From Bacteroidaceae bacterium (GTDB taxonomy: Bacteria; Bacillota; Clostridia; Oscillospirales; Acutalibacteraceae), in NCBI GenBank assembly GCA_963620305.1, contig CAVFAD010000002.1, forward strand, positions 2,086-66,085: 64,000 bases of DNA, written 5' to 3'. This document shows, one piece after another, positions 5,611 through 64,000 of this stretch (the stretch's first letter is position 1; every line of letters begins with the position of its first letter). The notes under the pieces were generated by a model. The model saw nothing but the letters and a program-made list of their open reading frames with translations. It did no database searches and was not told the DNA's origin. The position numbers and the translations under genes were made by a program.

Positions 5611-5752
5611 AAACAAACGCTCCGAAAGCGCGGGCGGAGAAAAATACGAAAAGCTTTACGCGCTTGTGCAGAAGCTTCTTGCGCAGACGGAAGAAATAAA
5701 AAACGAAACGGGCGAGATAGCTTCGTTTTTGAGGGGGACGGTGAAAAAGTGA
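5600..5752 (+). CDS. Possible 50-aa coiled-coil ORF with a TTG start
   Basis: Fills the gap between the 624-aa and 371-aa ORFs and overlaps both ends (LDTKNKRSESAGGEKYEKLYALVQKLLAQTEEIKNETGEIASFLRGTVKK). Non-ATG start and no clear RBS. Confidence 0.3.
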   Translation: MDTKNKRSESAGGEKYEKLYALVQKLLAQTEEIKNETGEIASFLRGTVKK

Positions 5753-6864
5753 AGAAAAATTATACATCGGCGGAAATTCTCGATATGGCGGTAAAAAAGG
5801 CTGCGGCAAGCTATTATGCCGACCTTGACCGCAACGGCGTTGTGGACGTTGCCGATGCGCGCATTGCGCTGCGCCGCGAACAGGGACTTGAGGAGGAGAC
5901 GAACGCGACGCAGAGCGCGGCGAAAAACACTTCTGCAGGTACCGTCTCACAGACGGTGTCCGCAGACACGCTCGGCGGGGCGGACGAAAGCAGCATCATT
6001 AAAAAGGAGCTGCTCGATTCGGTGATTGCCGACACGGGCAAAAGCTATGACATAGCTGCGGACAGGCTCTATGACGAATACCGCCGCGAGTACGAAAAGA
6101 ATGCGCAGCGTGCCGCAAAGAACGTGTACGGTACGGCTTCATCGAACACAGGCGGATACGGCTCGTCATACGCTGCAAGCGCGGCTGCCGACGCGTACGG
6201 ACGGTATCTCTCCGAGCTTGCGGACAAGCTGCCCGAATTTGCCGAAAGCGCGGCTGCCGTCAAAAAGAGCAGTGTACAGAATAAGCTTAACGTTCTCGAG
6301 GAGATACGCAAGCAGGAGTCCGATACGTATTCACGCTATTCCGATTCACTGAAAAATGCGTGGACGGCAGCGGAAAACGGCGATTATTCGTTTATTGAAG
6401 CGTTCGGTGCGGACACCTCCGCCATGCGCGAGGAAAAGGCAATGGCGGCAGCCGTATCCGCCGCGAAGTACGGCGACTATTCGGGACTGAAATTCATGGG
6501 AGTCGACACCTCCGCCGCCGAATATGCGGACTTGCTCGACACTGCGGCAAAAATAGCGCAGCAGGGCGATTATTCGTATCTTGAAGAGCTCGGAGTGAAT
6601 GTTGAGGGACTTAAAGCGCAGGACAGTCTCGAAAAGGCCGTTGCACTTGCGCGGTACGGAGATTATTCGCTGCTCGGAGATTTTTCGTCCAATATCGCTT
6701 CGATGAAGGAAAAGATAAATTTTACGGTGCAGCGCGGCGCAGCCGCAGCATATGCAGCGGGCGGCAGGAGCGGTCTGAACGCTTATCTCGACCGACAGAT
6801 AAATTACGGTCAGATCACCGAAAAAGGAAAGGAACAGATTATAAAAGCTCTCACGCAGAATTAA
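5749..6864 (+). CDS. Phage protein with a dockerin-like Ca-loop and four YGDYS repeats
   Basis: GTG start after GAGGGGGA. DLDRNGVVDVADARIALR resembles a dockerin segment. Four units of about 32 aa each contain (Y)GDYS. Confidence 0.65.
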   Translation: MKKNYTSAEILDMAVKKAAASYYADLDRNGVVDVADARIALRREQGLEEETNATQSAAKNTSAGTVSQTVSADTLGGADESSIIKKELLDSVIADTGKSYDIAADRLYDEYRREYEKNAQRAAKNVYGTASSNTGGYGSSYAASAAADAYGRYLSELADKLPEFAESAAAVKKSSVQNKLNVLEEIRKQESDTYSRYSDSLKNAWTAAENGDYSFIEAFGADTSAMREEKAMAAAVSAAKYGDYSGLKFMGVDTSAAEYADLLDTAAKIAQQGDYSYLEELGVNVEGLKAQDSLEKAVALARYGDYSLLGDFSSNIASMKEKINFTVQRGAAAAYAAGGRSGLNAYLDRQINYGQITEKGKEQIIKALTQN

Positions 6865-6888: not shown

Positions 6889-8826
6889 ATGGAAGTGGCA
6901 TCTTTAAGCGTCAGCTTTAATGCCGGAGAACATAAATACAGGGTGATAAACGTCACGCTTGACAAGGCAATGGAGGGCAAAAGCCTGCGCCTTGCGTTTA
7001 TCACCCCGAAAGGACGCAGCTTTATGAGCGGTGAACTTGAGGTGAATGACCTTAAGGCGTCGTTTGAGGTGCCTGCGATTCTTCTTGACGGCAGGGGCAA
7101 GCTGCTTTGTCAGGCTGTTATATACGAAAACGGCGAGTTTGCCGCAAAAAGCCGAATAGAAGGCTTTTATGTCGACGGCTCGCTCGATGAATGGAGCTAT
7201 ACGGACAAAAACGGAACGGTTTCACCCGAAACGTTTGCCGATACTTTAGACGAGCTGACGGAAACGGCGGCTCAGCTGCGGGAGCGTATAAACACGCTGG
7301 AGGGGAGCTGCTTTGCTCTCGAAACGGCTCTTGAGGATTATTCTCTGAAGACCGACCCGCCCGCACTTATCACTTCGCTCAAAAGCAAAAAATGGCTGGC
7401 TCTCGGCGACGGTCAAACGGAGGAAAACAGCTACAAAACAACACCGTATACCGAAACGGTGCAAGCCGCTTTCGGCATTTCACAGGTGCTCAATTACGGT
7501 GAGGACGGCTCCACGCTTGCAATGAAAAGCGCGGACGATACCGACGCAATGTGCGAACGCGCCCGGTCGCTGCCCGCCGATGCCGACCTTATCACCGTTT
7601 TCGGCGGCGGCGAGGACATGCGTGCGGATATTCCGCTCGGCACCTTGGACGACGGCAGTGCGCAGACGTTTTACGGCGGCGCGGATAAGCTCTGCCGCAC
7701 TTTACTTGAAGCATATGTCGGCAAAACGATTGTTTTTATTACACCGACGCAGCAGAATAAGGACTTTGCCGTCAACGGAGAGGGACTTTCTGCGGCGGAT
7801 TATGCGGACGCTCTGAAAAATGTCTGCCGCAAGTATTCGATTCCCGTATACGATGCGAACGGCGAGGGCGCGATATGCACGGCGGTCGATGCGCACAAAA
7901 ATCTTTACACTGCCGACGGACTGTATCTCAACGACGCAGGGCATGCGCTAATCGCGAACGGACTGTTTAATTTTATCCGAAATCTGTCTACCGTCAAAAC
8001 CGTTTTTCTTGAGGGAGAAGCGCAGCAGACGGCGGTGTCGGCAAAAAGTGTCCGTCTGAACAAAAGCGCGGTTTCGTTTGACACAGAGCACAGCGCAGTC
8101 GTTACCGCCGTTGTTTCGCCGTCAAACGCAGAGGACAAAAGCGTAACCTGGTCATCGTCTCCCGACGGACTTACACTTGCGGCGAACGGCAATGTCTGTA
8201 CCGTTTCGGCTTCGGGGGCGGGTGAATATGTCCTGACGTGTACTTCCGTCGACGGCGGGCATACGGCGAGCTGCAGTGTGACCGTTACCGAGCCGTACGT
8301 TGCGGTGCAGAGCGTAACGCTTGAGTGGCTTGCCGCAGAAATAACGGTCGGCGGCGACCTGCCCCAGACCGTGACGGTTTTGCCGAGCAATGCAAGCGAC
8401 AGCTCCGTTGTGTGGTCGACCGACAGCGATTGCGTTTCGATTACTCCGACCCGCCTTGGGTGTACAATAAGCGGAGTGTCGGAGGGTACTGCGACCGTTA
8501 CATGTACGGCGACTGACGGCGGAATATCGGACAGCTGCACCGTGACGGTAAATCCCGCAGTTGTGCTGCCGACCTCGATAAGATTCGGCAATGCGTCGGT
8601 TTCGTTAAAGCAGGGCGCGACGAAAAAGCTGACGGTGTATTTTCTGCCGACAGGCTCGACAGTGCAGGAGCTTGTATTCAGTGCAGAAAACAGCAACGTG
8701 ACGCTTGACGCGGACGGCACTTCCGTAACGCTGACGGGTGTGACCGCCGGTACGTGCAAGGTGACGGCGACCACCGCAGACGGAGCACTGACGGCAAGCT
8801 GCAGCGTTACCGTTCTTGCGAACTGA
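6889..8826 (+). CDS. Tail fibre / receptor-binding protein: BppU_N-like N-terminus, SGNH-like domain, 3 x Big_2
   Basis: 645 aa. SGNH-like blocks are LALGDGQTEEN, ITVFGGGEDM and ADGLYLNDAGHALIANG. Three Ig-like group-2 repeats follow (e.g. VRLNKSAVSF...KSVTWSSS...CTVSASGAGEYVLTCTSVDGGHTASCSVTV). Confidence 0.75.
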   Translation: MEVASLSVSFNAGEHKYRVINVTLDKAMEGKSLRLAFITPKGRSFMSGELEVNDLKASFEVPAILLDGRGKLLCQAVIYENGEFAAKSRIEGFYVDGSLDEWSYTDKNGTVSPETFADTLDELTETAAQLRERINTLEGSCFALETALEDYSLKTDPPALITSLKSKKWLALGDGQTEENSYKTTPYTETVQAAFGISQVLNYGEDGSTLAMKSADDTDAMCERARSLPADADLITVFGGGEDMRADIPLGTLDDGSAQTFYGGADKLCRTLLEAYVGKTIVFITPTQQNKDFAVNGEGLSAADYADALKNVCRKYSIPVYDANGEGAICTAVDAHKNLYTADGLYLNDAGHALIANGLFNFIRNLSTVKTVFLEGEAQQTAVSAKSVRLNKSAVSFDTEHSAVVTAVVSPSNAEDKSVTWSSSPDGLTLAANGNVCTVSASGAGEYVLTCTSVDGGHTASCSVTVTEPYVAVQSVTLEWLAAEITVGGDLPQTVTVLPSNASDSSVVWSTDSDCVSITPTRLGCTISGVSEGTATVTCTATDGGISDSCTVTVNPAVVLPTSIRFGNASVSLKQGATKKLTVYFLPTGSTVQELVFSAENSNVTLDADGTSVTLTGVTAGTCKVTATTADGALTASCSVTVLAN

Positions 8827-8898
8827 TAAAAGCATCTGAAAATTTCAGTGTGACACGCGAGTCACCGAAAAAATATTTTTGAAAAGGAGATGACTGCA

Positions 8899-9660
8899 AT
8901 GAAGAAAATTTACATTGACCCCGGTCACGGCGGGGCGAACCCCGGCGCATCGTACGGCGGCAGACGTGAAGCGGACGACGTGTTCAGGCTTTCGTCCGCA
9001 GTCGCAGAGCTGCTCGGAGGTCAGTCGGAGGTCGAAGTGCGTTTGAGCCGCAGCGACGGCGAAGACCCCGATATAAGCCGCCGCGCTGCCGAAGCAAACG
9101 AGTGGGGCGCGGATTATTTCATCAGCATCCACCGCAACGCCTTTTTGCCGGAAAAAGCAAGCGGCGCAGAGGTGTGGTGCTATTCAAAAATCGAAAAGGG
9201 CGGCGAGACCTACAGAAAAGCGGAGAGCATTCTGAACGCGCTGTGCCTTGCGGCAGGATTTAAAAACAGAGGCGTACACCTCGGCGCGCCGTCGTATGCC
9301 GATTTCGGAGTTAACAGACTTACGCGCATGCATTCCTGTCTGCTGGAAACGGGATTTATTGACAATTCCGCCGACAATGCGCTGTTTGACGACAATTTCG
9401 GCGCGGCGGCAGCTGCACTTGCCGAAGCGCTTTGCGGTGCTGTCGGTCTAAAATACGAAGCGGCGAAAAAAGTCAGCGGAGACATAAACGGCGACGGCAG
9501 CGTTAGAGCAGAGGATGCGCGTACCGCGCTTCGCGCCGCCGTGGGACTCGAAACGCTCACTCCCGACGAGGAGAAACGCGCGGACGTTGACGGCGACGGC
9601 AAAGTCACGGTCGCGGACGCAAGAAGCATTCTCCGTACGGCAACGGGACTTGAAGAATAA
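8899..9660 (+). CDS. Endolysin: N-acetylmuramoyl-L-alanine amidase (Amidase_3) with a C-terminal dockerin module
   Basis: AAGGAG sits 9 nt upstream of the second ATG. Motifs IYIDPGHGGANPGA, ISIHRNA and LLETGFIDN. The C-terminus has two dockerin segments, DINGDGSVRAEDARTALRAAVGL and DVDGDGKVTVADARSILRTATGL. Confidence 0.85.
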   Translation: MKKIYIDPGHGGANPGASYGGRREADDVFRLSSAVAELLGGQSEVEVRLSRSDGEDPDISRRAAEANEWGADYFISIHRNAFLPEKASGAEVWCYSKIEKGGETYRKAESILNALCLAAGFKNRGVHLGAPSYADFGVNRLTRMHSCLLETGFIDNSADNALFDDNFGAAAAALAEALCGAVGLKYEAAKKVSGDINGDGSVRAEDARTALRAAVGLETLTPDEEKRADVDGDGKVTVADARSILRTATGLEE

Positions 9661-9674
9661 GGGGGTGACGGAAA

Positions 9675-10115
9675 ATGAAAGACGTACTGTGCGCTGCTCT
9701 CGGCGCGGTCGGCGCGGGTATTGCATGGCTTTTCGGAGGTTGGGACGCGTCTATGATTACACTTTTGGTGCTTATGGCAATTGATTACATAACGGGACTT
9801 GTCGTTGCGGGCGTGTTTAAAAAGTCCGAAAAAAGTGAAAACGGCGGACTTGAAAGCCGTGCCGGTTGGAAAGGACTCTGCCGCAAGGGTGTTACACTGC
9901 TTATCGTGTTCGTCGCGGTAAGGCTCGATATGCTCATCGGCACAAGCTATCTGCGCGACGGCGTGTGCATCGCGTTCATCGTCAACGAGGTCATTTCAAT
10001 AACCGAAAACGCGGGACTTATGGGCGTGCCCGTCCCTGCCGTGATTACGAACGCGATTGCGGTGCTGAAGAAAAAGCATGCCGATACGGGAAGTGTCGGC
10101 GAAAATCGGGAATAA
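9675..10115 (+). CDS. Holin (phage_holin_4 / toxin-secretion holin family)
   Basis: GGGGGTG RBS, 146 aa, 3-4 TM segments. Family-like motifs IDYITGLVVAGV, GWKGLCRKG and NEVISITENAGLMGVP. Lies immediately after the endolysin. Confidence 0.85.
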   Translation: MKDVLCAALGAVGAGIAWLFGGWDASMITLLVLMAIDYITGLVVAGVFKKSEKSENGGLESRAGWKGLCRKGVTLLIVFVAVRLDMLIGTSYLRDGVCIAFIVNEVISITENAGLMGVPVPAVITNAIAVLKKKHADTGSVGENRE

Positions 10116-10143
10116 GCAAAAACGCGAATAAGTAAAAGCAAAA

Positions 10144-10176
10144 AGCCGTGACTCAAAACGCGAGTCCCGGCTTTTT
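10144..10176 (+). terminator. Rho-independent terminator of the phage late operon
   Basis: agccgtgactc / gagtcccggct stem (one mismatch), 7-nt loop, then TTTT. Confidence 0.7.
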
Positions 10177-10613
10177 CGGTCGGTCGGAGGCGGAACGGGG
10201 GAGTGATTATTCATTAAAAACACATGGGGAGAGTACTTTTTGTTTGAAAAGCGCACGGCGTTTTTTGTGCGAAGCGGCAGACGTTTTGAAAAAAGTTAAT
10301 TCCCAAAGTAGATGCAGCAGTACGGGAAGACCTGCAGTTATCACAAGAAACAGCTGCATTAAGTCTGAGAAATAACAGTAAAACGCCGCTTTTTTAACTG
10401 TTTTCGGTAGGAAAACGGTATATTGCGGCGAACAATACAATACCAAACCGCCGATTAAACCGCTGCACGGAAAAACAGCCTGTGCGGCAGTGCACATTAC
10501 ACAAAAAAGCAGTTTCTTTTTTGTGTAAAACGAGAATAGTATTTTTTTTCGTGTTGTGTTAAACTATTATCGGAAGGAGTGTATCCGATATATCCGAAGG
10601 AGGGCGGGTTCTC

Positions 10614-11321
10614 ATGAAAAAAGTATATTCTGTTTTTCTCTCGCTTTTCATTTTTGTCGTTTGCCTTGTTTCCTTGTGCGCAACGGAATCACGGCAGATA
10701 ACAGAAGCTGCCGCCGCAGTCTCTGCGTACACGATTGATACTCCCTATTTTTTTCCGATTACTCCCGCCGATTCGGAGTGGCAGAATTTTGAAACAAAAC
10801 AGGAAATGGACAAGGCTTGTCAAATTCCGGAACAAATTTTAACAAAGCTCACAACACGAGCCTTGCTTGAAACGGTGCTGTCTCAGCCGTTTATGTCGAA
10901 TTATGTTGCGTTTAATACGTATGCAGACGCTGCAAAAAATTTTTACGATACTTTTAACGGCTTCAGAGAGCTGATGTCAAGAGAGGATTTGACCGCGGTT
11001 CTGTTGGCAGCATATGACGGCTCGAACGTTTTGCGCGGTGAAGAAAACGAAGAAAGCATCACATACGGTCATTCCCGCGCTTATTTCAGGGTTTCGGACT
11101 TGGAATTTATAATTGCGTATGACAGGATTGCAAACGGCGAGCGGTCGGCAGAAGAAGAAAACACTTTCCGTGCAATTCACAGCGAGAAGAAGATCGCACG
11201 TGAGAACATGGGCACATATTCTGATTTTGATGAAACATATCTCGTGTTTATGAGTCAAGAAAACCTTCTTTCTGTCCAAGACACAGGATATACCGCTTAT
11301 ACACCGAATGTAATCTCTTGA
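10614..11321 (+). CDS. Secreted hypothetical protein (possible prophage cargo gene)
   Basis: GGAGGG RBS and a signal peptide (MKKVYSVFLSLFIFVVCLVSLCA). Visibly AT-richer than its neighbours: hand counts of single 60-nt lines gave 35-43% G+C. Confidence 0.7.
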   Translation: MKKVYSVFLSLFIFVVCLVSLCATESRQITEAAAAVSAYTIDTPYFFPITPADSEWQNFETKQEMDKACQIPEQILTKLTTRALLETVLSQPFMSNYVAFNTYADAAKNFYDTFNGFRELMSREDLTAVLLAAYDGSNVLRGEENEESITYGHSRAYFRVSDLEFIIAYDRIANGERSAEEENTFRAIHSEKKIARENMGTYSDFDETYLVFMSQENLLSVQDTGYTAYTPNVIS

Positions 11322-34145: not shown

Positions 34146-37100
34146 ATGAAAAACAAAAACTCCGTTTTCAAAAAGGCATTGTCGGTTTTGTTGACCGCGC
34201 TGCTTGTTTTCGGCACGGTGTCGCTCGGCATCGTCTTCCCCGAAACAAAAATAACGGCGAAGGCACTTGAAAGCTTCGGCGATGTAGCATTGTATGTGCC
34301 TGAAGCTGTCTATTTGTATCCAAACGTTTCTTCTTGGACGGCAACAACATCGTCTAACTTTCAGTATTTCATTGAAAACAGTGTTGACACGGAGGATTTT
34401 TCAAACACCCCGACTCCCTCTGCCGAAACGAGCACGACGAGTACGATTTATTTTAATTATTCAAAAACAACCGGAACGCCTACGCTTTCATACAAGTGGA
34501 TAAAAGCCGACGGCTCAACGGAAATGAATGATTCTAAGGGAAAAATCAATTTCGGCGGGAGTGCTCATGCCTACGGCGTTGCAGTCAACATGTCAAAAAC
34601 AGGTGGTTATTACACGGCGGCACTTGACAGAACTTCGTCGGTTTCTCCCGATATTGCGGCAGCGGACACCGGTTGTTACATCGAGTGGACTGTTACCTTT
34701 GATGATTCGGTGGACGGAGAGACGAAGACAGCAGTAGCTTATACCTATGTATACAAACCGTATGTTCTTCCCGTCGGAGCGGCAGGTAAGGTAAGATGTA
34801 CGGATTGGGATGACCACGATAATTCACAGATAACATGGATAACCGGTGTGCATTGTGTTGATGCACTTCCGGAGTACAAATCGCATTACCCGAACTATAT
34901 CACAACATCTGAAGCTCCCGGAACAAACGGACTTGCGGTGTTCCTCTCTCGGGAGGATATTTCAGGTACCGGCTTTTTCGGCAGATCATCTTCCGGAAAT
35001 AATGAAGACAGAATGTACTTCCCGTTTTACAATTCCGATTCCTCAAAGTCATACGCTCATGTCAACGGTTACGGCAAAGCTGATCCCGATGTTTGGATGA
35101 AAAGCGGTTTATCTTCCAAAACATTTGATGTAGCGTCTTTCATATACCGAACATGGGATAAAGGCAATGATATAACCATGACCGTCAAAGAAGGCGGTGT
35201 CGGCGGAATATATATCGACACGAGTCGGTATGCAAATCTAAACCAAATACCGAACCTCGGTGTCGGTATGATGATGACGGATAACGAAGACACTAAAGCA
35301 TCTGATGACGGCGCATGGAAAATAGGTGACTACACAAATTATGCAAATGCGAAGTTCGACGGAGACAACAGTCAAAAAAACGGCGACTACATGCGCGGCA
35401 CATGGAAGGAATTTAATTATACGATTGCCGGAGAAGGAGACCCCGACAACCGAAACGGTTCTTACGATACATGCGTACTAAAGTATGCAGGAGCATGGTA
35501 TCGCGAGATTCTGTCGGGTTCTTCGGTAACCTACAAAATCAAAGCAAGCCAGATGAACAATCAGAAAAACGACTGGATAACCGTTTCTTGTATTGTTTCT
35601 CTTAATGCTACTCAGACGGACAAAAGCGATCTTCGTGACGCGGTTCATAAGGCAAGTGCGGCTTTTGCAAAGCTTGCAATGCGCAGCGGCTATAATTCAA
35701 TATACTACTATAATGACACAGCGTACCAAAATTTTGTAGCTAAGTATAAACAGGCATATATGGAGCTTACAAAGGTTGACGGCGGTGTTACAGAAGGACT
35801 TGCAGCAGATTTGCTTGCGTCTCTGGAAAAACTTAACATAAAGGTAACTCTTCACGGAAACGGCGCAACACTTACACCCAACTATAAAATAGTTACGGTC
35901 GGACTTAACGATTTGGTAAGTGTTAAGGTTTCCGAGTTCGGCACTCCGACGCGCAAGGGTTACACCTTTAAGGGTTGGACGCTCACCGAAAACAGCGGCG
36001 ACGCAACCGACGGGAAAACGGACGGAGAGCTTGAAGTAGGTCCCCGTCAGAAGGACGTTTACGCGACATGGGAGCTGAATGACTACACCGTGACGTTCAG
36101 GGCAATGCCCTACGGCAAATTCGGCGAATCAACAGAGGACGTTGTAATTCACTACAACGTTGAGAATACATTCACCGTGCCCGAAAATTACACACGCGAC
36201 TACTACATTTTCAACAATACATGGAACATAGTTTCAACCGACAGTGCCGATTGGAGCATGGGAGTAAGTCTTGCTCCCGGCTATACGTCCCCTGCGCGCA
36301 GTATAGGCAACCTTGTGCTTGAGCCGAACGTTACCCCGATTCAGTACACTGTAACATACAATTCCGACGGCGGCAGCAACATTGAGGACACGAGCGTCAT
36401 GGCGTACAACATTGAGAGTACGCACTCTCTCCCCGTGTCTACACGTCAGGGTTACAAGCTCGTCGGCTGGCAGGTTGTCACGACAGACGATGAAAAGTGG
36501 AGCAAGGACACAACATACGCCGCAGGCTACAAGTTCACCGGCATGCACGGCAACGTTTCTCTTAAAGCGGTATGGGAGACTATGACTTCAACCGTGACGC
36601 TGAACATCGGCGCGGATGAATCCATCTCCGGCAACACCGTGCTTACATACGCGTATTCGAGTTCTCTCGCGCTTAACACTCCCTCCAAAAAGGGTTACAC
36701 CTTTAAGGGTTGGCGCGTAAGTGCCAAGGGCGACGGCGAAAACACATGGAACATCGGTGACGAGTATCTTCTCGCTGCCGGTGAAACGGGCGTTACTCTG
36801 CCCGGCGGCAAGCTCGGTGACGTTACGCTCACGCCGATTTGGGAAATAAACACCTATACCGTCAATTTCAACTCCGACGGCGGCACGGCATATGACGCAA
36901 AAACTTTCACGGTGACGGACAGTATTACACTTCCCTCACCCGAAAAGAACGGCTACACTTTTGCGGGTTGGAGCGTTCCGATTCACGACACCGAGTACAA
37001 CTGGACGGATACCGTCTACAACGGCAATCAGACTCTCACGGGCATGTACGGTTCGGTCACGCTGAAAGCCAACTGGACAAAGACACCCTACACCGTGACG

Positions 37101-40100
37101 TTTGACGCGAACGGCGGCACGGTAACCGTCGCATCACTCCCCTACGACATCGAGAGCGGCACTCCGAACCTGCCCACTCCCTCCAAAACGGGATATGAAT
37201 TTGACCGCTGGGTCGTGGATTCAGCCGACGCGCAGTCCTCGTGGACGAAAGGCGCGGAGTATACCGATGCACTTCCTGCGGGCAATTACGGCAGTATGAC
37301 GCTTAAAGCTCAGTGGAAACCCGTTGAATACACCGTAAACTTCTCCGACGGCACTACAAAAACCTACACGATAGAAGAAACGTTTACGCTCCCCGAATCC
37401 GTAAAGGACGGCTATGAATTCGTCAAATGGACGCTTACTTCCACCAACGGCAACTGGGGCGAAACCGGCAAGGAATATGCCGCCGGCGAGGAGCTTTCCG
37501 GCATGTGGGGCGCGGCTGTGCTTCAAGCCGAGTACACCCCGTGCAGCTACACCGTGACATATCTTGACACGGACGGCAGCCAAATCGCGGCGCAGACATT
37601 CAAGACGGGCGACGAAATAACGCTCAGAGACTACTCGAAGGACGGTTATATCTTCCGCGGCTGGACGGTGCAAAGCTCCGCAGGCAACTGGGGCGGCGAG
37701 GGCAGCGTTATCACCGACAAAACCGTTGCGGCGAAGTACGGCGATGTTACGCTTGAGCCGAAGCTCGAAGCGATAGAATACACCGTGACATTCCTGCCCG
37801 ACGGCGGCGATGCAGTTCCCGCGATTACCTACACGGCGGAAGATACAATTACCATGCCCTCAACCGCGAAGTACGGCTATGACCTCGCGGGTTGGACGGT
37901 TGAAACTCCCGTCGGCAGCTGGACGGACGGCGAAATTTTCGCGGCGGCAGAGGAAGTCACGGGCAAATGGGGCAACGTTACGCTCAAGGCGAAATGGACA
38001 CCCAAGAAATACAACATTACATTTATAACAGGCATGGGCGAACAAGTTGTTCAGTCGGAATACGGTCAGGCGACGCCTACCCTGCCCGACGATTATTCGA
38101 AACCTGCCGACGCGCAGTATACCTATACGTTTGACCACTGGGAACCCGCTCTCACGAAAGTTACGGCAGATGCGACATACACCGCCGTCTACAAGGAAGA
38201 GCTTAATTCCTACACTGTGACGTGGCGCGTGCTCAAAACCGAGGGCGGCACGGACTGGGAAGAAACGACGGCAACGTGGAAGTACGGCGAAGAACCCAAA
38301 TTTGACGGCGTTCCGACGCAGAATGCAAGCAGTGCCGACCACAGAATGCGTTTTGTAAGGTGGAATCCCGATGTGACCGCCGTCACAGGAAACGCAACAT
38401 ACACGGCGGAATTTGAAAGTGTTGAAAATCCGCAGACGGTCGAATGGTACAACGGTTCAACGCTTCTTGCGTCCACGGAATGGGCAAAGGGCGAAACTCC
38501 GTCGTACAGCGGCGCAGTTCCCGCGAGAGCGGACGAGGGCGGCTATAAGTTCGTGTTCGTCGGCTGGGCAGCGACCGACGGCGGCGAAAAGCTCGACGCG
38601 ATACCGACGGTAGAAACCGTTTCAACCGAACCCGTAAAATACTATGCGGTGTTCGACAAACAGCCGCAGTCATACACTCTCACGCTTGACACCGACGGCG
38701 GAACGATTTCCGGCGGCAGCACGGTAAGCTACACCTACGGCGGCGAAAATACAAAAATAACACTCCCCTCTCCCGTTAAAGACGGCTATGTCTTCAAAGG
38801 CTGGCTCGTTGCATCGACGGACGGCGACGGCACATTGACGGTCGGCAGCGTTTACAACGCAGGTGAAAACACTGCGGATGTTTACGGCAGCGCATCGCTC
38901 AAGGCGCAGTGGGAGACAGTCACCTACACGCTTACATTCGACGGCGAGGGCGTGCCGGTCGAACCCATGAATTATACGATAGAATCGACGGATACTCTCC
39001 CGACAGCCGAAAAAGAAGGCTGCGAACATATCGGCTGGCTCGTTTTCGAAGCGGACGGCAGCTGGACGCTCGGAGCAAGCATTTCGACGGATTTTGTCCT
39101 CACGGGCACCTACGGCAACGCGACGCTCACACCTGTTTACACGGCGAAGACCTACACAATAAAGTGGGTAAGCGGCGAATATGTTCAGACTTCCGAAGTT
39201 CAGTTCGGTTCGGTGATATTCGCGTTTGAGCCTGTTTCGAAGCAGGGTTACACCGCCGAGTGGGATGCGGAAATTCCCGCGACGATGCCTGCAACTGACC
39301 TTACTTTCACGGCGGTTTACAAGCCGATTGAATACTACCTGCGTCTTGAGCTTAACGGCGGCACGGGCGCGGAGAGCTTCTACTACACCTTTGACGGCGA
39401 CGATGTCCTGCCGACACCCGCACGCGACGGCGCAACGTTCGACGGCTGGCGCGTCGTGTCCTCAAACGGCAACTGGACGGTCGGCACGGTTCTTGCGGGC
39501 GGTACGGCTCTTACGGGCAGGTACGGCAGCACGACTCTTTCGGCGCAGTGGCAGTTTGAAATCCACACGGTAACGTGGGTCGCGGGCGACGAAACACGCG
39601 TCACGCGCTGGTACCACGGCATGACTCCGTCCTTCGACGGCACGCCGTACAAGTCGACCGACGAAAACTATTCTTACGTGTTCACCGGTTGGGATAAGGA
39701 AATTCTCCCCGTCACGGCTGATGTTACATATACCGCACAATTTGAAAAAACGGAACGTGTTTATACGGTAAAATGGGTTGTCGACGGCGTTACGACGGAG
39801 CAGAAATACTCCTACGGCGACACTCCCGTTTACGGCGGCGAAACTCCGTCGCGTCCGTCAACGTCCGAGTATGACTTCACGTTTGACGGCTGGTCGCCCG
39901 AAGTCACTGAGGTAACAGCCGACGCGACGTATGTGGCGCAGTTCAGAGTTTTCGTAAAACTTCAGGGACTGTCGCTCAATAAGAGCGCGATGTTCCTCGA
40001 TATAGGTGCGGGCGAGAGCCTTACGGCGAATATTTATCCTGCGGCGGCATCCAGCAAAGATGTAATCTGGACTTCGTCCGACACGTCTAAAGCGACGGTG

Positions 40101-40835
40101 GACGCTTACGGTAAGGTTACGGCGGTAGATGCGGGCATGGCGATAATTTCCGCGTCGTCGGGCGACGGCAGCTTTAAGTCATACTGCGTCGTTACCGTTT
40201 CGCCGAAGCTGACGACCTACATTGAAATTACCGCAAAGGGCGTTTCGACAACGAATCAGAAGGGAACGTCAGTTCAGCTTTACGCCACGGTTAAACCCGA
40301 CGACGCAACGGACAGGACGTTTACGTGGTCGTCAGACAAGCCCGGCATCGCGTCGGTTGACGAATTCGGCATGGTTCGCTTTAACTCAAAGGGCACTGCG
40401 ACCATAAGCGTCGTTACGACAGACGGCTATGCGCGGGGCAGCATTGAAGTGACCGTAACGGAGGACGCGACCGAGGACGAAACGCAGAAGACATACACGG
40501 TTCGTTTCCTGAACCTCATGTGCACAATGTATCTTATTGACGACAACGGCAACTCGCACACTTTCGGCAGCAACGAAGTTGTGGTAGTGCCCGAGGGCGC
40601 AAGCGTCCGTATCCGTCCGTCGCGTTCGTGCTATGTCATTGCGAACGGCGAACAGCTCGCGCAGCAGGACGAGTACGTTATCGAAAACATTCAAAAGAAC
40701 TACATTATTTCCAATTCCAAGGTGGAGATAATAACTCCCGACGACAGTGACAGCGCACCGTCGTTCATGAAAAAGCTGCAGGAGTTCTTCAGAAAGATCG
40801 TCGAATTCTTCAGAAAGCTTTTCGGTGCAAAATAA
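34146..40835 (+). CDS. Giant secreted cell-surface protein: unknown ~570-aa head, ~18 Listeria-Bacteroides (Flg_new) repeats, 2 Big_2 domains, C-terminal amphipathic helix
   Basis: GGGAGAG RBS and signal peptide. Recurrent motif YTVTF..DGG...TLP.P.K.GY.F.GW...W..G...G..G.VTL.A.W. Big_2 segments at about 39.96-40.44 kb. No LPXTG, SLH or dockerin. Confidence 0.9.
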   Translation: MKNKNSVFKKALSVLLTALLVFGTVSLGIVFPETKITAKALESFGDVALYVPEAVYLYPNVSSWTATTSSNFQYFIENSVDTEDFSNTPTPSAETSTTSTIYFNYSKTTGTPTLSYKWIKADGSTEMNDSKGKINFGGSAHAYGVAVNMSKTGGYYTAALDRTSSVSPDIAAADTGCYIEWTVTFDDSVDGETKTAVAYTYVYKPYVLPVGAAGKVRCTDWDDHDNSQITWITGVHCVDALPEYKSHYPNYITTSEAPGTNGLAVFLSREDISGTGFFGRSSSGNNEDRMYFPFYNSDSSKSYAHVNGYGKADPDVWMKSGLSSKTFDVASFIYRTWDKGNDITMTVKEGGVGGIYIDTSRYANLNQIPNLGVGMMMTDNEDTKASDDGAWKIGDYTNYANAKFDGDNSQKNGDYMRGTWKEFNYTIAGEGDPDNRNGSYDTCVLKYAGAWYREILSGSSVTYKIKASQMNNQKNDWITVSCIVSLNATQTDKSDLRDAVHKASAAFAKLAMRSGYNSIYYYNDTAYQNFVAKYKQAYMELTKVDGGVTEGLAADLLASLEKLNIKVTLHGNGATLTPNYKIVTVGLNDLVSVKVSEFGTPTRKGYTFKGWTLTENSGDATDGKTDGELEVGPRQKDVYATWELNDYTVTFRAMPYGKFGESTEDVVIHYNVENTFTVPENYTRDYYIFNNTWNIVSTDSADWSMGVSLAPGYTSPARSIGNLVLEPNVTPIQYTVTYNSDGGSNIEDTSVMAYNIESTHSLPVSTRQGYKLVGWQVVTTDDEKWSKDTTYAAGYKFTGMHGNVSLKAVWETMTSTVTLNIGADESISGNTVLTYAYSSSLALNTPSKKGYTFKGWRVSAKGDGENTWNIGDEYLLAAGETGVTLPGGKLGDVTLTPIWEINTYTVNFNSDGGTAYDAKTFTVTDSITLPSPEKNGYTFAGWSVPIHDTEYNWTDTVYNGNQTLTGMYGSVTLKANWTKTPYTVTFDANGGTVTVASLPYDIESGTPNLPTPSKTGYEFDRWVVDSADAQSSWTKGAEYTDALPAGNYGSMTLKAQWKPVEYTVNFSDGTTKTYTIEETFTLPESVKDGYEFVKWTLTSTNGNWGETGKEYAAGEELSGMWGAAVLQAEYTPCSYTVTYLDTDGSQIAAQTFKTGDEITLRDYSKDGYIFRGWTVQSSAGNWGGEGSVITDKTVAAKYGDVTLEPKLEAIEYTVTFLPDGGDAVPAITYTAEDTITMPSTAKYGYDLAGWTVETPVGSWTDGEIFAAAEEVTGKWGNVTLKAKWTPKKYNITFITGMGEQVVQSEYGQATPTLPDDYSKPADAQYTYTFDHWEPALTKVTADATYTAVYKEELNSYTVTWRVLKTEGGTDWEETTATWKYGEEPKFDGVPTQNASSADHRMRFVRWNPDVTAVTGNATYTAEFESVENPQTVEWYNGSTLLASTEWAKGETPSYSGAVPARADEGGYKFVFVGWAATDGGEKLDAIPTVETVSTEPVKYYAVFDKQPQSYTLTLDTDGGTISGGSTVSYTYGGENTKITLPSPVKDGYVFKGWLVASTDGDGTLTVGSVYNAGENTADVYGSASLKAQWETVTYTLTFDGEGVPVEPMNYTIESTDTLPTAEKEGCEHIGWLVFEADGSWTLGASISTDFVLTGTYGNATLTPVYTAKTYTIKWVSGEYVQTSEVQFGSVIFAFEPVSKQGYTAEWDAEIPATMPATDLTFTAVYKPIEYYLRLELNGGTGAESFYYTFDGDDVLPTPARDGATFDGWRVVSSNGNWTVGTVLAGGTALTGRYGSTTLSAQWQFEIHTVTWVAGDETRVTRWYHGMTPSFDGTPYKSTDENYSYVFTGWDKEILPVTADVTYTAQFEKTERVYTVKWVVDGVTTEQKYSYGDTPVYGGETPSRPSTSEYDFTFDGWSPEVTEVTADATYVAQFRVFVKLQGLSLNKSAMFLDIGAGESLTANIYPAAASSKDVIWTSSDTSKATVDAYGKVTAVDAGMAIISASSGDGSFKSYCVVTVSPKLTTYIEITAKGVSTTNQKGTSVQLYATVKPDDATDRTFTWSSDKPGIASVDEFGMVRFNSKGTATISVVTTDGYARGSIEVTVTEDATEDETQKTYTVRFLNLMCTMYLIDDNGNSHTFGSNEVVVVPEGASVRIRPSRSCYVIANGEQLAQQDEYVIENIQKNYIISNSKVEIITPDDSDSAPSFMKKLQEFFRKIVEFFRKLFGAK
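35837..39948 (+). repeat. Array of diverged ~70-75-codon coding repeats inside the giant gene
   Basis: About 18 units by my count of the GY.F.GW core. They are diverged at the DNA level. Confidence 0.8.
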
Positions 40836-41057: not shown

Positions 41058-41226
41058 TAAGGGTAGTGTCATATCGAGTCTTTTTTCGGTTTTTTTCGGA
41101 AAGTAAGCTGACTGCGGTGCGCCTTACGACCGCTGCGGCGCGGGGAGAATACGTCTTTTGCCTGTCGCGGTGTGCCGTTTTTCGCGGTGCATGCGGCAGA
41201 AATATATACGAAAGGGATGTGCAGAA

Positions 41227-43464
41227 ATGAAACATTCTGTTAAAACAATCATTGCGCTGCTTCTCACCCTGGCTTGCATCGTGCAGCCGTGCAGCGCACT
41301 TGCGGCATCTTCAAAAAAGACATACGTCAAGGAATTTATGCTGAGCTACGGCAATACCGCCGACGAAGCCAAAAAGTGGCTCAAGGACAACGGCTACGAG
41401 GTGCTCGACTACGACCTCAATGAGGGCGCGGACGATACCTTCTCCAAAAAACGCGCCGTTTACCTCGGCTACAAAACGACGACCGACGCCGCAGACGCCG
41501 TTACCGACATGCGTCTTATGAACATGAAGGGCGGCTACAGCGTTCAGGATTATCAGATTATGCTCGACGAGCAAAAGGCGAATATCGAGCTGTTCATCGG
41601 GGATTTTGTTGTTGCGGTGAACGAGTACAGAGCGAATTACGCAAAGGGTCAGGAGCGCGCGAAGGCGGCTCACGACATGCTCAACTACCTGTATGACGAC
41701 GATACGCAGGCGCAGATGGGCGACCTGCTTCTCAATAAGATTAAGGAAGAATATACAGAGGAGGAATATAACGCGCTCGACGGGGACGTTAAGGCAAAGA
41801 CCGCCGACATGACGACGATTCTCATGCAGGGCAACGCCGACGCGGTGCTTGCGATAGAGCAGACGATAGCGACGGCTTCGGACAGCAGCGACACTCTCTG
41901 GACGGAGAGATATGCAGAGGCTTCGACTTATGACGAGATGCTCGACGAGCTTATGGAAGCCGAAAATATGACGGTAAACGAAGCCGAAAAGTTTCTTGCA
42001 GCCGAGTACGACGAGGACGCAAGGGCGATAGCGTCCAAAATCGACGGATACATTGAATATCTTGAAAACTATACAAAAGAGGACATAACGCTCCTGTCGT
42101 CGGCGGAGGAAATAAAAGCGTACGAAGCGGAGCACACCGACTTTTCGTACACGGACTGGTTTACGGCGGGAACGCAGTACGAGCTGCTTAAGGTGCTTAT
42201 GAACGACGACGTATCGCTGCTTGAGCTGATGACGGGCGAGGATTTTGACGTTCTGGGCGATGACCGCTGCATGCTTTATCCGCTTGTCGCGTCGCTTACA
42301 AAGGGTCAGAGAGCCTGTCTTGACTTTATGACGCTTTACGGAATCGTTGCACTCGGCATAAACGGCGACGAGGCAACGGCGGAGACAATGACCGATTTTA
42401 AGCTGAAGCCGACCGACGAAAAGGGCGTTTCCGTTTACGACGGTGTCGACCGTACTCTTTTCGGCGGCGAAGTCGCGCTTACGAATGACGCAATAAGGCT
42501 CCGCGCTTCGACCGGCAAAGAGGCTGTACGAAGCAGGGAAAGCTACATTTCCGCGACCTCGTACGTTCTTTACGGCGTCTTCTGCCTTTCGGCAATATGT
42601 GCCGTTGCCGCGTGGAAGCACAGCGCGTCGCTTGCCGCCTTCGCTGCGGAAGTAAAGAAAAACGTAGCACAGATTGAGTCGGAGGCAGCCGAAGCATATG
42701 CAATGTACGAGAGGCTGGGTACCGAGCAGGAGTGGGCGCCGTACAAAACAAAGTACGACGACCTGATGTCGAAATCCGAAACTGCGCGGACGGGTCTCGG
42801 CAAGACAAACACAATGACGAAATATTTCCGCTATGCGGGCATCGCGCTGACATGCATTTCGATAATAATCATGGGTATTTCGCTCTGGAACACCTACAAT
42901 GACCTTAAGGAATATTATAAGTCCGATTTCACACCCATTCCGATGCACATGGTGGATGAGGGTGTCGATGAAAATGACGAGAAGGTCTATACGTACTATA
43001 CGGCGGTCGCCTGCAACCGTAAGGACGCGGGTATGGTGACATCCGAAACCGAAATTCTCGAGGATTACGGCGACCTCAACGGCGATGTCGGCAGACAGTG
43101 GGTCGCGCTCTATACCACAAAGGACAAGGCTGCGGGTTATCCCGTTCAGACAAATATGCTCGTGCGCTACGAGGACTCAAAGCTCCCCGACGAGGATTCG
43201 ACCGCGCTTTCGATGTTCGGCGAAAAATCCGCGCAGAACCTCACTAACGAAACGGCGGGTTATACGTACAACGACGGAAAGAGCGGAATTTACATGTTCT
43301 TCAGCGTCGATACGGCAGCCTTCGCCGGCAGCGTATTCTCCGGCAGCAGGTACGTCCTTATGGGCGGCGCGGCAGCCGTTTTGCTTGCAGCCGCCTTCGC
43401 TGCGGGCATGTATACGGAGAAAAAGGGCAAAAAAAAGACAAAAAATAATGTTCAAGAGGTCTAA
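41227..43464 (+). CDS. Three-TM surface protein, unknown family, paralog A
   Basis: Signal peptide (ALAASS), ectodomain of about 440 aa, TM, helical loop of about 65 aa, TM, second ectodomain of about 165 aa, TM, Lys-rich tail. Start chosen at MKHSVKT with AAAGGGA upstream. Confidence 0.85.
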   Translation: MKHSVKTIIALLLTLACIVQPCSALAASSKKTYVKEFMLSYGNTADEAKKWLKDNGYEVLDYDLNEGADDTFSKKRAVYLGYKTTTDAADAVTDMRLMNMKGGYSVQDYQIMLDEQKANIELFIGDFVVAVNEYRANYAKGQERAKAAHDMLNYLYDDDTQAQMGDLLLNKIKEEYTEEEYNALDGDVKAKTADMTTILMQGNADAVLAIEQTIATASDSSDTLWTERYAEASTYDEMLDELMEAENMTVNEAEKFLAAEYDEDARAIASKIDGYIEYLENYTKEDITLLSSAEEIKAYEAEHTDFSYTDWFTAGTQYELLKVLMNDDVSLLELMTGEDFDVLGDDRCMLYPLVASLTKGQRACLDFMTLYGIVALGINGDEATAETMTDFKLKPTDEKGVSVYDGVDRTLFGGEVALTNDAIRLRASTGKEAVRSRESYISATSYVLYGVFCLSAICAVAAWKHSASLAAFAAEVKKNVAQIESEAAEAYAMYERLGTEQEWAPYKTKYDDLMSKSETARTGLGKTNTMTKYFRYAGIALTCISIIIMGISLWNTYNDLKEYYKSDFTPIPMHMVDEGVDENDEKVYTYYTAVACNRKDAGMVTSETEILEDYGDLNGDVGRQWVALYTTKDKAAGYPVQTNMLVRYEDSKLPDEDSTALSMFGEKSAQNLTNETAGYTYNDGKSGIYMFFSVDTAAFAGSVFSGSRYVLMGGAAAVLLAAAFAAGMYTEKKGKKKTKNNVQEV

Positions 43465-63109: not shown

Positions 63110-64000
63110 TTATTTCTTCGGAATGGTTTCCGTTTGGAGTTTTTCTCCGCAGACGGTGCACTTTTTGTAACGGGAACCTTCTTTAGTGCTTGTTGCGGCA
63201 TACTCGATTATCCAGCCGGAGGGCGTGTGTCCGCGAGTCGGAATTGTTTCGCGTGATTTTTCGTCCTCATAGCCGCAGGCGGCGCATTTTTGTATTCTTT
63301 CGCCGTCCTCGGTGCAGGTCGCTTCTTTTACGGTCACGTATCGGAAGTCATGGTACCCGACAGGATTTATGACGATATTTTTCGCCGCATCGCAGTTTTT
63401 GCAGATGAGCGTCGAATTTATCTTTTCCAGACACGATACCGTTACACCCGTCCATTCGTGTTCTACGGTCGGCACAACGGCGGTTTCAATGAGCAAGTCG
63501 CAGAATTTGCAGCGGTATTCGTATGCGCCTTGTTCGGTGCAGGTCGCTTTCTTGATGAGTTTGCGGACTCCCGCCACGTGACCGGGATTCGGCAGTACGG
63601 TGTATCCGTATATTTTTCCGCAGTGTGCACACAGGAATGCTCCCTTGCCGTTTTGGTAGCAGGTTGCCTGTGTCAGTGTGACGACTTCCTTTTTTGAATG
63701 TGTTGCGCGGGAGTCGAGTCCCACGGCAATGCGCAGAGAATCGCGTGCGTCGTCAACGCCTATCGTACCGTCGGCATTGACATCGTACGCACCGAAGTCA
63801 CCGTCGTCAATGTCGGTCAGTCCGACTGCCGCGCGCAGGATGTTTCTTGCGTCGGCTACGGTAACATAGCCGTCGCCGTCGGTGTCGGCGCAGCTGCTGC
63901 AATAAGTGCTGTCCGCAGCCACATCGTAATTGACGGTTGCCTGTGCAGCTTCGACTGTGCAGACCGCCGAAACGGCGAGAAGAAGCGACAGTGATGCAGC
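63110..64000 (-). CDS. Secreted dockerin protein with four Cys-rich (zinc-ribbon-like) repeats; N-terminus beyond the window
   Basis: The frame stays open to the window edge (..AASLSLLLAVSAVCTVEAAQA signal-like). Dockerin segments DTDGDGYVTVADARNILRAAVGL and DVNADGTIGVDDARDSLRIAVGL. Repeats of the ATCTE.G....C..CG type. Confidence 0.8.
   Translation of the reverse strand, partial: AASLSLLLAVSAVCTVEAAQATVNYDVAADSTYCSSCADTDGDGYVTVADARNILRAAVGLTDIDDGDFGAYDVNADGTIGVDDARDSLRIAVGLDSRATHSKKEVVTLTQATCYQNGKGAFLCAHCGKIYGYTVLPNPGHVAGVRKLIKKATCTEQGAYEYRCKFCDLLIETAVVPTVEHEWTGVTVSCLEKINSTLICKNCDAAKNIVINPVGYHDFRYVTVKEATCTEDGERIQKCAACGYEDEKSRETIPTRGHTPSGWIIEYAATSTKEGSRYKKCTVCGEKLQTETIPKK

Follow-up and report, generated by a model that had tools for sequence, protein, structure and literature searches.

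A dockerin as the C-terminal module of a prophage endolysin from gut Clostridia

The gene described here lies in a stretch of 64,000 nucleotides (the window, positions 2,086 to 66,085 of contig CAVFAD010000002.1, assembly GCA_963620305.1) assigned to the Acutalibacteraceae. It is the endolysin gene of a P22-portal-type prophage in a gut Clostridia (Oscillospirales/Acutalibacteraceae-like) host, and its product consists of an N-terminal Amidase_3 domain, a variable linker and a C-terminal dockerin (Table 1). Dockerins normally attach their carrier proteins to the cohesins of cellulosomes or amylosomes. A modular endolysin with a dockerin as its probable anchoring module is a real and apparently undescribed variant of the endolysin architecture. 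An earlier note on this DNA, made from the letters alone, had proposed an Amidase_3 domain followed by a complete two-segment dockerin, and Pfam, the AlphaFold2 (AF2) model and Foldseek all bear out this proposal.

The C-terminal 60 residues are, by their sequence and modelled fold, a canonical two-segment dockerin of the Ca2+ type. The earlier note had named Pfam Dockerin_1 as the way to confirm the domain, and this family (PF00404) indeed matched amino acids (aa) 197-245 with 36.0 bits against a gathering score of 22.9 (E 8e-9). The limits given there for the module are also right, 9478 being the codon of G197 and 9657 the final sense codon position; the linker between the two segments, which it had counted as 10 residues, comprises 11 (E221-A231). 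Both Ca loops are intact (D198-x-N-x-D-G-x-x-x-x-x-D209 and D232-x-D-x-D-G-x-x-x-x-x-D243) and both segments share the signature DARxxLRxA[VT]GLE, a symmetry which suggests a dual binding mode as in type I dockerins. Like the type I dockerins of cellulosomal enzymes from C. thermocellum (Xyn10B, 1OHZ/2CCL) and A. cellulolyticus (ScaB, 4UYP/4UYQ), and like the dockerins of R. flavefaciens and R. bromii, the module has two segments of 22-23 residues, each made of a 12-residue Ca loop and a helix, a short linker helix, and a two-fold symmetry compatible with dual binding. Unlike them, it represents a subtype of its own, defined by the above signature in both segments, and its carrier is a phage lysis enzyme without signal peptide.

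The AF2 model of aa 193-256 (the C-terminal 64 residues, the module being aligned with 13 relatives) reached a mean predicted local distance difference test (pLDDT) score of 93.4 and consisted of a loop-helix, the short linker helix and a second loop-helix. When this predicted model was compared with the PDB by Foldseek, the 31 top matches were all dockerins, with query-normalised template modelling scores (TMq) of 0.67-0.90 and root-mean-square deviations (rmsd) of 1.0-3.2 Å. They came from C. thermocellum, A. cellulolyticus, R. flavefaciens, C. acetobutylicum and C. cellulolyticum; 29 of them were solved in complex with cohesins, and the other two are free dockerin modules. An EF-hand pair was rejected by the fold, as polcalcin, parvalbumin, troponin C and calmodulin gave TM scores of ~0.3 and an rmsd of ~11 Å, and the EF-hand models of Pfam also stayed under their cut-offs (22.1 against 25, and 18.3 against 25.4). 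A sequence profile search of the PDB left dockerin and EF-hand inseparable, the Ca loops dominating the score, but the fold does separate them. Past residue 181 of the lysin, Pfam matched only Dockerin_1 and the EF-hand models; none of the classical wall-binding domains (SPOR, LysM, SH3, CW_7, PG_binding, CW_binding) was found by Pfam in this part of the protein.

We assigned the gene to the lysis cassette of the prophage because a holin adjoins it, starting 15 bases 3' of its end, because no signal peptide was found on the product, whose catalytic domain already begins at residue 7, and because phage structural genes lie upstream; the endolysin call of the earlier note is borne out on these same grounds. 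Pfam and PHROG identified upstream of the lysin a GDSL/Big_2 tail-type protein, which is the last structural gene ahead of the lysis cassette, an internal-virion-type protein and the major capsid protein. A P22-type portal and a Prp protease are located just outside the window, on the upstream side of the prophage, and ordinary host genes begin at ~10.6 kb; the host part of the window amounts to 54 kb. The open reading frame (ORF) itself falls into PHROG endolysin families, the best being phrog_435 (E 9e-49). Gene callers in public assemblies use ATG 8899 as the start, which gives a product of 253 aa, and the identical 253-aa product has been called in NCBI assemblies GCA_963613185.1 and GCA_963613415.1.

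Amidase_3 (PF01520) was matched with E 1.3e-34 and a score of 120.2 bits, where 27 is the cut-off. In a 20-sequence alignment of lysin relatives, H13, E27, H81 and E153 are invariant, and from known Amidase_3 structures we take H13, E27 and H81 to be the zinc ligands His, Glu and His, and E153 the catalytic Glu. The N-terminal domain is predicted to be a zinc amidase with the MurNAc-L-Ala bond of peptidoglycan as its cleavage site. Modular Amidase_3 endolysins are known in Gram-positive phages, for example PlyPSA of the Listeria phage PSA and CD27L of a Clostridioides phage. The window lysin resembles them in its N-terminal catalytic domain with His/Glu/His and Glu, its adjacent holin, its lack of a signal peptide and its variable linker, and its catalytic domain is 35-43% identical to those of the lysins of Clostridium, Bacillus and Paenibacillus phages (INPHARED). 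It differs from them in its C-terminal module, which is a dockerin and not a carbohydrate- or peptidoglycan-binding domain.

A dockerin on a lysin was found in none of the 50,697 deposited phage genomes of INPHARED. Four dockerin matches in this collection were set aside as ordinary secreted bacterial proteins on short scaffolds named "UNVERIFIED Bacteriophage sp.". We also found no description of dockerin-bearing phage endolysins in the literature; a 2026 paper mentions, in connection with adhesion, a contig of a putative archaeal virus that encodes dockerin domains (PMC13452462).

Wall hydrolases with dockerins are known from cellulosomes, as secreted components. A dockerin-bearing GH25 lysozyme belongs to the cellulosome of R. 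champanellensis, according to the account of Morais 2016 given in PMC6403190 and PMC13463774; a rumen metagenome encodes dockerin proteins with lysozyme or D-Ala-D-Ala carboxypeptidase domains (PMC6487960); and R. flavefaciens has an NlpC/P60-like X-dockerin protein (PMC3573020). These proteins share with the window lysin the combination of a wall hydrolase with a C-terminal dockerin and the occurrence in Ruminococcus/Oscillospirales. Their docking onto scaffoldin cohesins has been shown or proposed, and they are interpreted as secreted and aimed at competitors, whereas the window lysin is cytoplasmic, holin-dependent and phage-encoded. R. bicirculans has a GH73 enzyme with both dockerin and cohesin (PMC4611034). 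It could be argued that the present gene encodes no phage lysin at all and that its product, like the R. champanellensis lysozyme, is a "lyticome" or cellulosomal enzyme which the host secretes to attack its competitors, since the dockerin-fused lysozymes and carboxypeptidases of rumen cellulosomal systems have been interpreted in this way (PMC6487960, PMC6403190). Given the missing signal peptide, the holin that follows so closely, and the position inside a prophage structural and lysis module which is kept across many assemblies and in three phage types, we regard this explanation as very improbable.

A search of 5.8 billion proteins returned 494 relatives of the lysin. Both PF01520 and PF00404 were present in all of the 120 best of these (length 244-335 aa), and the Ca-loop pattern occurred twice in 108 of the 120. 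Identity to the window protein and column entropy were calculated for 117 family members of similar length. Mean identity was 64% over the dockerin against 60% over the catalytic domain, and column entropy was 1.02 bits in the dockerin, 1.14 in the catalytic domain and 1.79 in the linker; by these measures, the dockerin is conserved as strongly as the catalytic domain. The invariant dockerin positions of the 20-sequence alignment comprise the Ca ligands and also the helix residues A210, R211, R215, V218, A244 and R245. Because residues beyond the Ca ligands are invariant, this pattern points to a conserved surface of interaction, in other words a binding surface.

These observations bear on a different role for the module, that of a Ca2+-dependent switch or stabiliser which would be unfolded in the low-Ca2+ cytoplasm, with the amidase inactive or compact, and would fold after release through the holin. 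Dockerins require Ca2+ for folding, and both Ca loops of the family are fully intact and invariant. In addition, a Ca2+-dependent EF-hand-like site governs the activity of the phage lysin LysGH15 (PMC4022735), which, like the window protein, is a phage lysin with an EF-hand-type Ca2+-binding loop. However, the site of LysGH15 lies inside its CHAP catalytic domain and controls activity, while that of the window lysin belongs to a separate C-terminal dockerin for which the fold search rejects an EF-hand pair. A switch also accounts poorly for a conservation that spans the helix surfaces (DARxxLRxAVGLE) beyond the Ca ligands and for a linker to the catalytic domain that is variable, and the shuffling of the module onto five catalytic classes and tail proteins (see below) is a better fit to a portable binding module. 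We consider a purely Ca2+-governed function unlikely.

Full-length relatives in species-representative genomes came from Acutalibacteraceae and from unclassified Clostridia metagenome-assembled genomes (MAGs) of animal and human guts. The same prophage was found at the same site in at least 8 metagenome assemblies (one with chimpanzee in its record name) and in two NCBI MAGs. The fusion of lysin and dockerin is spread over no fewer than three virion types that are unrelated to one another. The first is the P22-portal type, represented by the window, by L181 with the same gene order and by L002-L009, among which the capsids of L002, L004, L005, L006 and L009 are 70-76% identical to that of the window phage. 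The second is a P2-like baseplate phage (L177), and the third is characterised by a giant MuF/ART-PolyVal protein and a holin of the same family as in the window (L179). Hundreds of sequence clusters make up this large lysin family, whose members so far carry only the annotation "N-acetylmuramoyl-L-alanine amidase".

The C-termini of the closest catalytic-domain relatives carry either a two-segment dockerin or a SPOR domain alone (L089, L092), while the Amidase_3 relatives P0118 and P0236 combine SPOR with a complete dockerin. SPOR is a peptidoglycan-binding domain, and the window dockerin, judged by domain order, holds the position which SPOR occupies in close relatives. The statement of the earlier note that a dockerin sits where a wall-binding domain is expected is correct in this respect; as a general rule, "replaces" would be too strong a word, as in relatives the dockerin is often found together with SPOR, CW_7 or LysM. 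A recurring C-terminal cassette made of SPOR and one dockerin segment was also seen, both on Amidase_3 lysins (L005 9992-10786, L006 6265-7056, L007 1156-1956 and P0237) and on Amidase_2 lysins, with L195, L196 and L199 as further loci of the cassette. Dimerisation or pairing in trans are possibilities for such single segments.

When the viral contigs of IMG/VR were scanned with the dockerin alignment, 27 loci came up. There, Dockerin_1 was detected by Pfam on lysins with GH25, GH25+LysM, Peptidase_M15_3+GH25, Amidase_2+CW_7 and Peptidase_M23 domains (L183, L185-L187, L200, L203, L207), and most of these lysins are flanked by small holin-type membrane proteins, one of which is clearly like the window holin. 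It was also found on proteins with a Phage-tail_3 or tip-attachment-J Ig-like domain and on proteins of 795-1362 aa (tail-type or large dockerin proteins L198, L201, L202, L206 and L209). The same contigs held tiny proteins of 91-102 aa that contain a dockerin only or a dockerin and a transmembrane segment (L188-L191). By this distribution, the dockerin is a portable module: it belongs to phage lysis cassettes and, in phages other than that of the window, also to tail proteins, and it stands alone or beside classical wall-binding domains. The idea of the earlier note that virion parts as well might carry dockerins therefore applies to other phages, through the tail-type Dockerin_1 proteins of IMG/VR; for the window phage it comes down to one dockerin-like segment, in the protein encoded at 5749-6864.

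A module in such a position might bind the wall directly, the dockerin fold recognising a non-protein ligand (peptidoglycan, a secondary wall polymer or the capsule) without any cohesin. This would be in line with the presence of the dockerin in the SPOR slot of close relatives, with the PG_binding_1 domain that a homologue of the 5749-6864 protein (P0229) has where the latter has its dockerin-like segment, and with the lack of a detected cohesin in the window. On the other hand, the module resembles ordinary dockerins that bind cohesins, in its sequence as in its predicted fold, and the nearest cellular dockerins co-occur with cohesins. Several lysins pair the dockerin with SPOR, CW_7 or LysM, which argues for a different and not a redundant ligand, and no dockerin is known to us to bind a polymer of the wall. 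Direct wall binding seems to us rather unlikely.

The dockerin-like loop that had been noticed in the 5749-6864 protein proved to be conserved and detectable with our own dockerin profile (Table 1), but it is a single segment, to which Pfam is blind. It forms an N-terminal arrangement of helix, Ca loop and helix (YTSAEILDMAV ... DLDRNGVVDVAD ARIALRREQGL), with the Ca loop D25-D36 at 5821-5856 and the second helix extending to ~5889. Neither Pfam nor PHROG gave a match anywhere in this protein. Its remainder is helical, with GDYS repeats, and one helix of the family measures ~70 residues. The AF2 model had a pLDDT of 78-88 over aa 1-50 and long helices or helical repeats over the rest, in an extended shape (predicted template modelling score, pTM, 0.32), and a Foldseek comparison with viral models matched only uncharacterised proteins of uncultured phages. 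The product is probably a virion or ejection protein. The true start of its gene is probably GTG 5749, against the ATG 5785 of gene callers.

Homologues of this protein (P0150-P0235) form at least 79 clusters, most of them with a conserved N-terminal segment. The loop pattern itself was present in 43 of 79 homologue clusters, down to 29% identity, and lay within the first 27 residues in 42 of these 43; several further clusters have a slightly divergent loop at the same position. In the versions of L192-L194, the module is a nearly complete two-segment one. The distant homologue P0229, whose core is 36% identical, has PG_binding_1 at its N-terminus in place of the segment, a swap that echoes the lysin in having a dockerin-type piece where relatives carry a wall-binding module. 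Also, related phages carry an additional short Amidase_3-like ORF of ~185 aa, 26-30% identical to the lysin (L002 8054-8605, L004 8488-9045, L005 6879-7442, L006 4470-5036). This ORF lies inside the structural module, directly after the homologue of the 5749-6864 protein, and is missing from the window phage; it may encode a virion-associated wall hydrolase.

The partner of the lysin dockerin could also be sought within the phage: the module would dock on the virion or on another phage protein, or pair with the segment of the 5749-6864 protein, and could in this way load the hydrolase onto the particle for entry. The retention of one N-terminal segment in the 5749-6864 family, the existence of single-segment lysin variants and the dockerins on tail-type proteins of other phages would all suit such a role. 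Nevertheless, none of the phage proteins encoded in the window showed a detectable cohesin-like domain, and the gene belongs to a classic lysin-holin cassette. Moreover, the lysin dockerin is independent of the 5749-6864 protein, because the myovirus-like L177 and the MuF-type L179/L180 carry a dockerin on the lysin only, within the flanks read. A phage-internal partner is, in our opinion, quite improbable.

The host itself encodes a dockerin of the same subtype. The host dockerin protein announced by the earlier note at 63.1-64 kb was confirmed as a secreted protein with a signal peptide, a two-segment dockerin of the DARxxLRxAVGL subtype and Cys-rich CxxC repeats. Both of its segments matched the lysin-family dockerin profile (E 2e-17), although the protein stays below the Pfam Dockerin_1 cut-off, with 15.7 bits. 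A full-length relative, P0386, is 97% identical. When 1.84 billion representatives were searched exhaustively for matches to the lysin, the best cellular dockerin matches (51-54% identity) were P0297, P0352, P0321, P0351, P0309 and P0332. All six, which come from other assemblies, match Pfam Cohesin, five of them above cut-off. Cohesin proteins share the Cys-rich repeats of this host protein; P0397, for example, is composed of a signal peptide, a cohesin, Cys-rich repeats and a C-terminal membrane anchor.

These repeats (CxxC ... CxxC ... P-x-x-G-H, ~45 residues per unit, placed after the dockerin in the host protein) belong to no Pfam family. They were also seen behind cohesins, LRR, CAP, SLH and PG_binding domains in many secreted proteins of Clostridia (P0386, P0387, P0397, P0297), and each looks like a zinc-ribbon-like stalk. 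Some cellular proteins consist almost wholly of tandem dockerins, with 10 Pfam Dockerin_1 stretches in P0238 (762 aa) and 8 in P0243 (522 aa); these poly-dockerin arrays, to which P0245 and P0249 also belong, have a signal peptide or membrane anchor and a related subtype.

Docking of the window module onto a cohesin appears likely. As related phages carry the fusion repeatedly, phages of this kind probably fix their lysins to surface proteins of the host and not to wall sugars. We propose that, as infection ends, the enzyme would cross the membrane by way of the holin, that the dockerin would fold with Ca2+ once outside the Ca2+-poor cytoplasm, and that it would plug into the cohesin modules of membrane- or wall-anchored surface proteins of the host. 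It would act as a protein-directed anchor, equivalent to a cell-wall-binding domain, and would concentrate the amidase on the envelope of its own host. The most plausible benefit would be to hold the lysin on the debris after lysis and to keep it from neighbouring potential hosts; we favour such retention, or host-specific confinement, over initial targeting because cohesins lie outside the wall and the lysin arrives from inside. For this proposal as a whole, release, folding and docking on host surface cohesins included, we see the chances as evenly balanced. A cohesin partner in this host is one that we infer; membrane-anchored single-cohesin proteins and sortase-anchored cohesins of the ScaE type are known in relatives of R. 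bromii and other ruminococci (PMC4611034, PMC13463774), and many ruminococcal cohesins are invisible to hidden Markov models (PMC13463774).

Several points weigh against docking on host surface cohesins. Pfam on candidate ORFs and phmmer both failed to turn up a cohesin in the 64 kb of the window, the 54 kb of host DNA included. The Pfam scan covered large or unannotated ORFs, and for most of the large unannotated ones matches with E values as high as 10 were considered. The phmmer queries were six cohesin proteins of the lineage with their dockerins masked, compared with all loci and with the window translated in six frames; the sole non-dockerin match in the window fell on the Cys-rich repeats that the host protein at 63.1 kb carries. 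The topology is awkward, as an endolysin attacks the wall from inside and cohesins are on or beyond its outer face, so that docking may matter only after the wall has been breached, that is, for retention and not for targeting. Canonical dockerin proteins are Sec-secreted and the window lysin is not, a difference of the carrier and not of the module. Some relatives have one dockerin segment only, after SPOR, and a lone segment cannot form a normal dockerin. Finally, at least one member of the Acutalibacteraceae has neither dockerin nor cohesin on its glycoside hydrolases (PMC8726730).

The other features of the window that we recorded belong to the host. The first gene past the prophage end, at 10614-11321 (in the interval 10116-11321 of the window; also in L082 and L169), encodes a 235-aa protein with a signal peptide and no family. 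It varies among assemblies with the same prophage, with a product of 235 aa, a split into 143 and 73 aa, or a product of 372 aa. The tRNA and Rfam scans of the window returned nothing, and no mark of an attachment site (tRNA gene or repeat) was seen in it. A 2229-aa secreted protein is encoded at 34146-40835 (+), with eight Listeria-Bacteroides (Flg_new) repeats and Big_2, its first ~980 residues being unannotated. Two adjacent and seemingly paralogous genes, with similar N- and C-termini, follow at 41158-43464 and 43470-45707 (+); their products of ~745 aa have a signal peptide and a C-terminal membrane anchor, gave no Pfam match even at E up to 10, and are candidate surface proteins.

Table 1. 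Features of the endolysin gene, its neighbours and the host dockerin protein (coordinates in the window).
Feature	Coordinates	Strand	Basis or description
Endolysin gene	8890..9660	+	256 aa from ATG 8890, stop codon included; ORF list, Pfam, PHROG
Amidase_3 catalytic domain (aa 7-181), predicted N-acetylmuramoyl-L-alanine amidase	8908..9432	+	Pfam PF01520
Linker, catalytic domain to dockerin (aa 182-196)	9433..9477	+	most variable part of the family
Dockerin module (aa 197-256, G197-E256)	9478..9657	+	Pfam Dockerin_1, AF2, Foldseek
Dockerin segment 1 (D198-L220)	9481-9549	+	12-residue Ca loop and helix
Inter-segment linker with short helix (E221-A231, 11 residues)	9550-9582	+	
Dockerin segment 2 (D232-L254)	9583-9651	+	12-residue Ca loop and helix
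Holin Phage_holin_4_1, lysis partner of the endolysin	9675..10115	+	Pfam E 3.4e-38; PHROG phrog_199
Tail-associated protein with a virion-attachment part at its N-terminus, a GDSL esterase and three Big_2 domains	6889..8826	+	Pfam; PHROG tail fibre/structural families
Phage protein with one N-terminal EF/dockerin-like segment	5749..6864	+	own dockerin profile, E 2.7e-4
Secreted protein of the host, 302 aa when complete, its N-terminus lying beyond the end of the window	63110..64000	-	translation, own profile

Endolysins are so far described as being targeted by modules that bind carbohydrates of the wall or peptidoglycan. A plug between two proteins, potentially of very high affinity, would represent a different targeting logic, and the breadth of its occurrence across lysin classes and tail proteins adds to its interest. 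A wider hypothesis, which we put forward tentatively and hold to be possible though doubtful, is that phages of gut and rumen Clostridia that use cohesins and dockerins have plugged themselves into the cohesin-dockerin network of their hosts, with dockerins on lysins of at least five classes, on an ejection-type virion protein and on tail proteins. Surface cohesins would then be anchors for lysis enzymes as well as docking points or receptors for virions, and their specificity would help to set host range and lysin specificity. To our knowledge, almost no phages of Oscillospirales have been cultured. If docking on host cohesins is true, it would connect the biology of phages with the amylosomes and cellulosomes of keystone degraders of fibre and starch in the gut and rumen, and would offer a clue, readable from sequence, to the host specificity of the lysin and possibly of the phage. 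It would also provide ready parts for species-specific lysins or for cohesin-based display in Oscillospirales.

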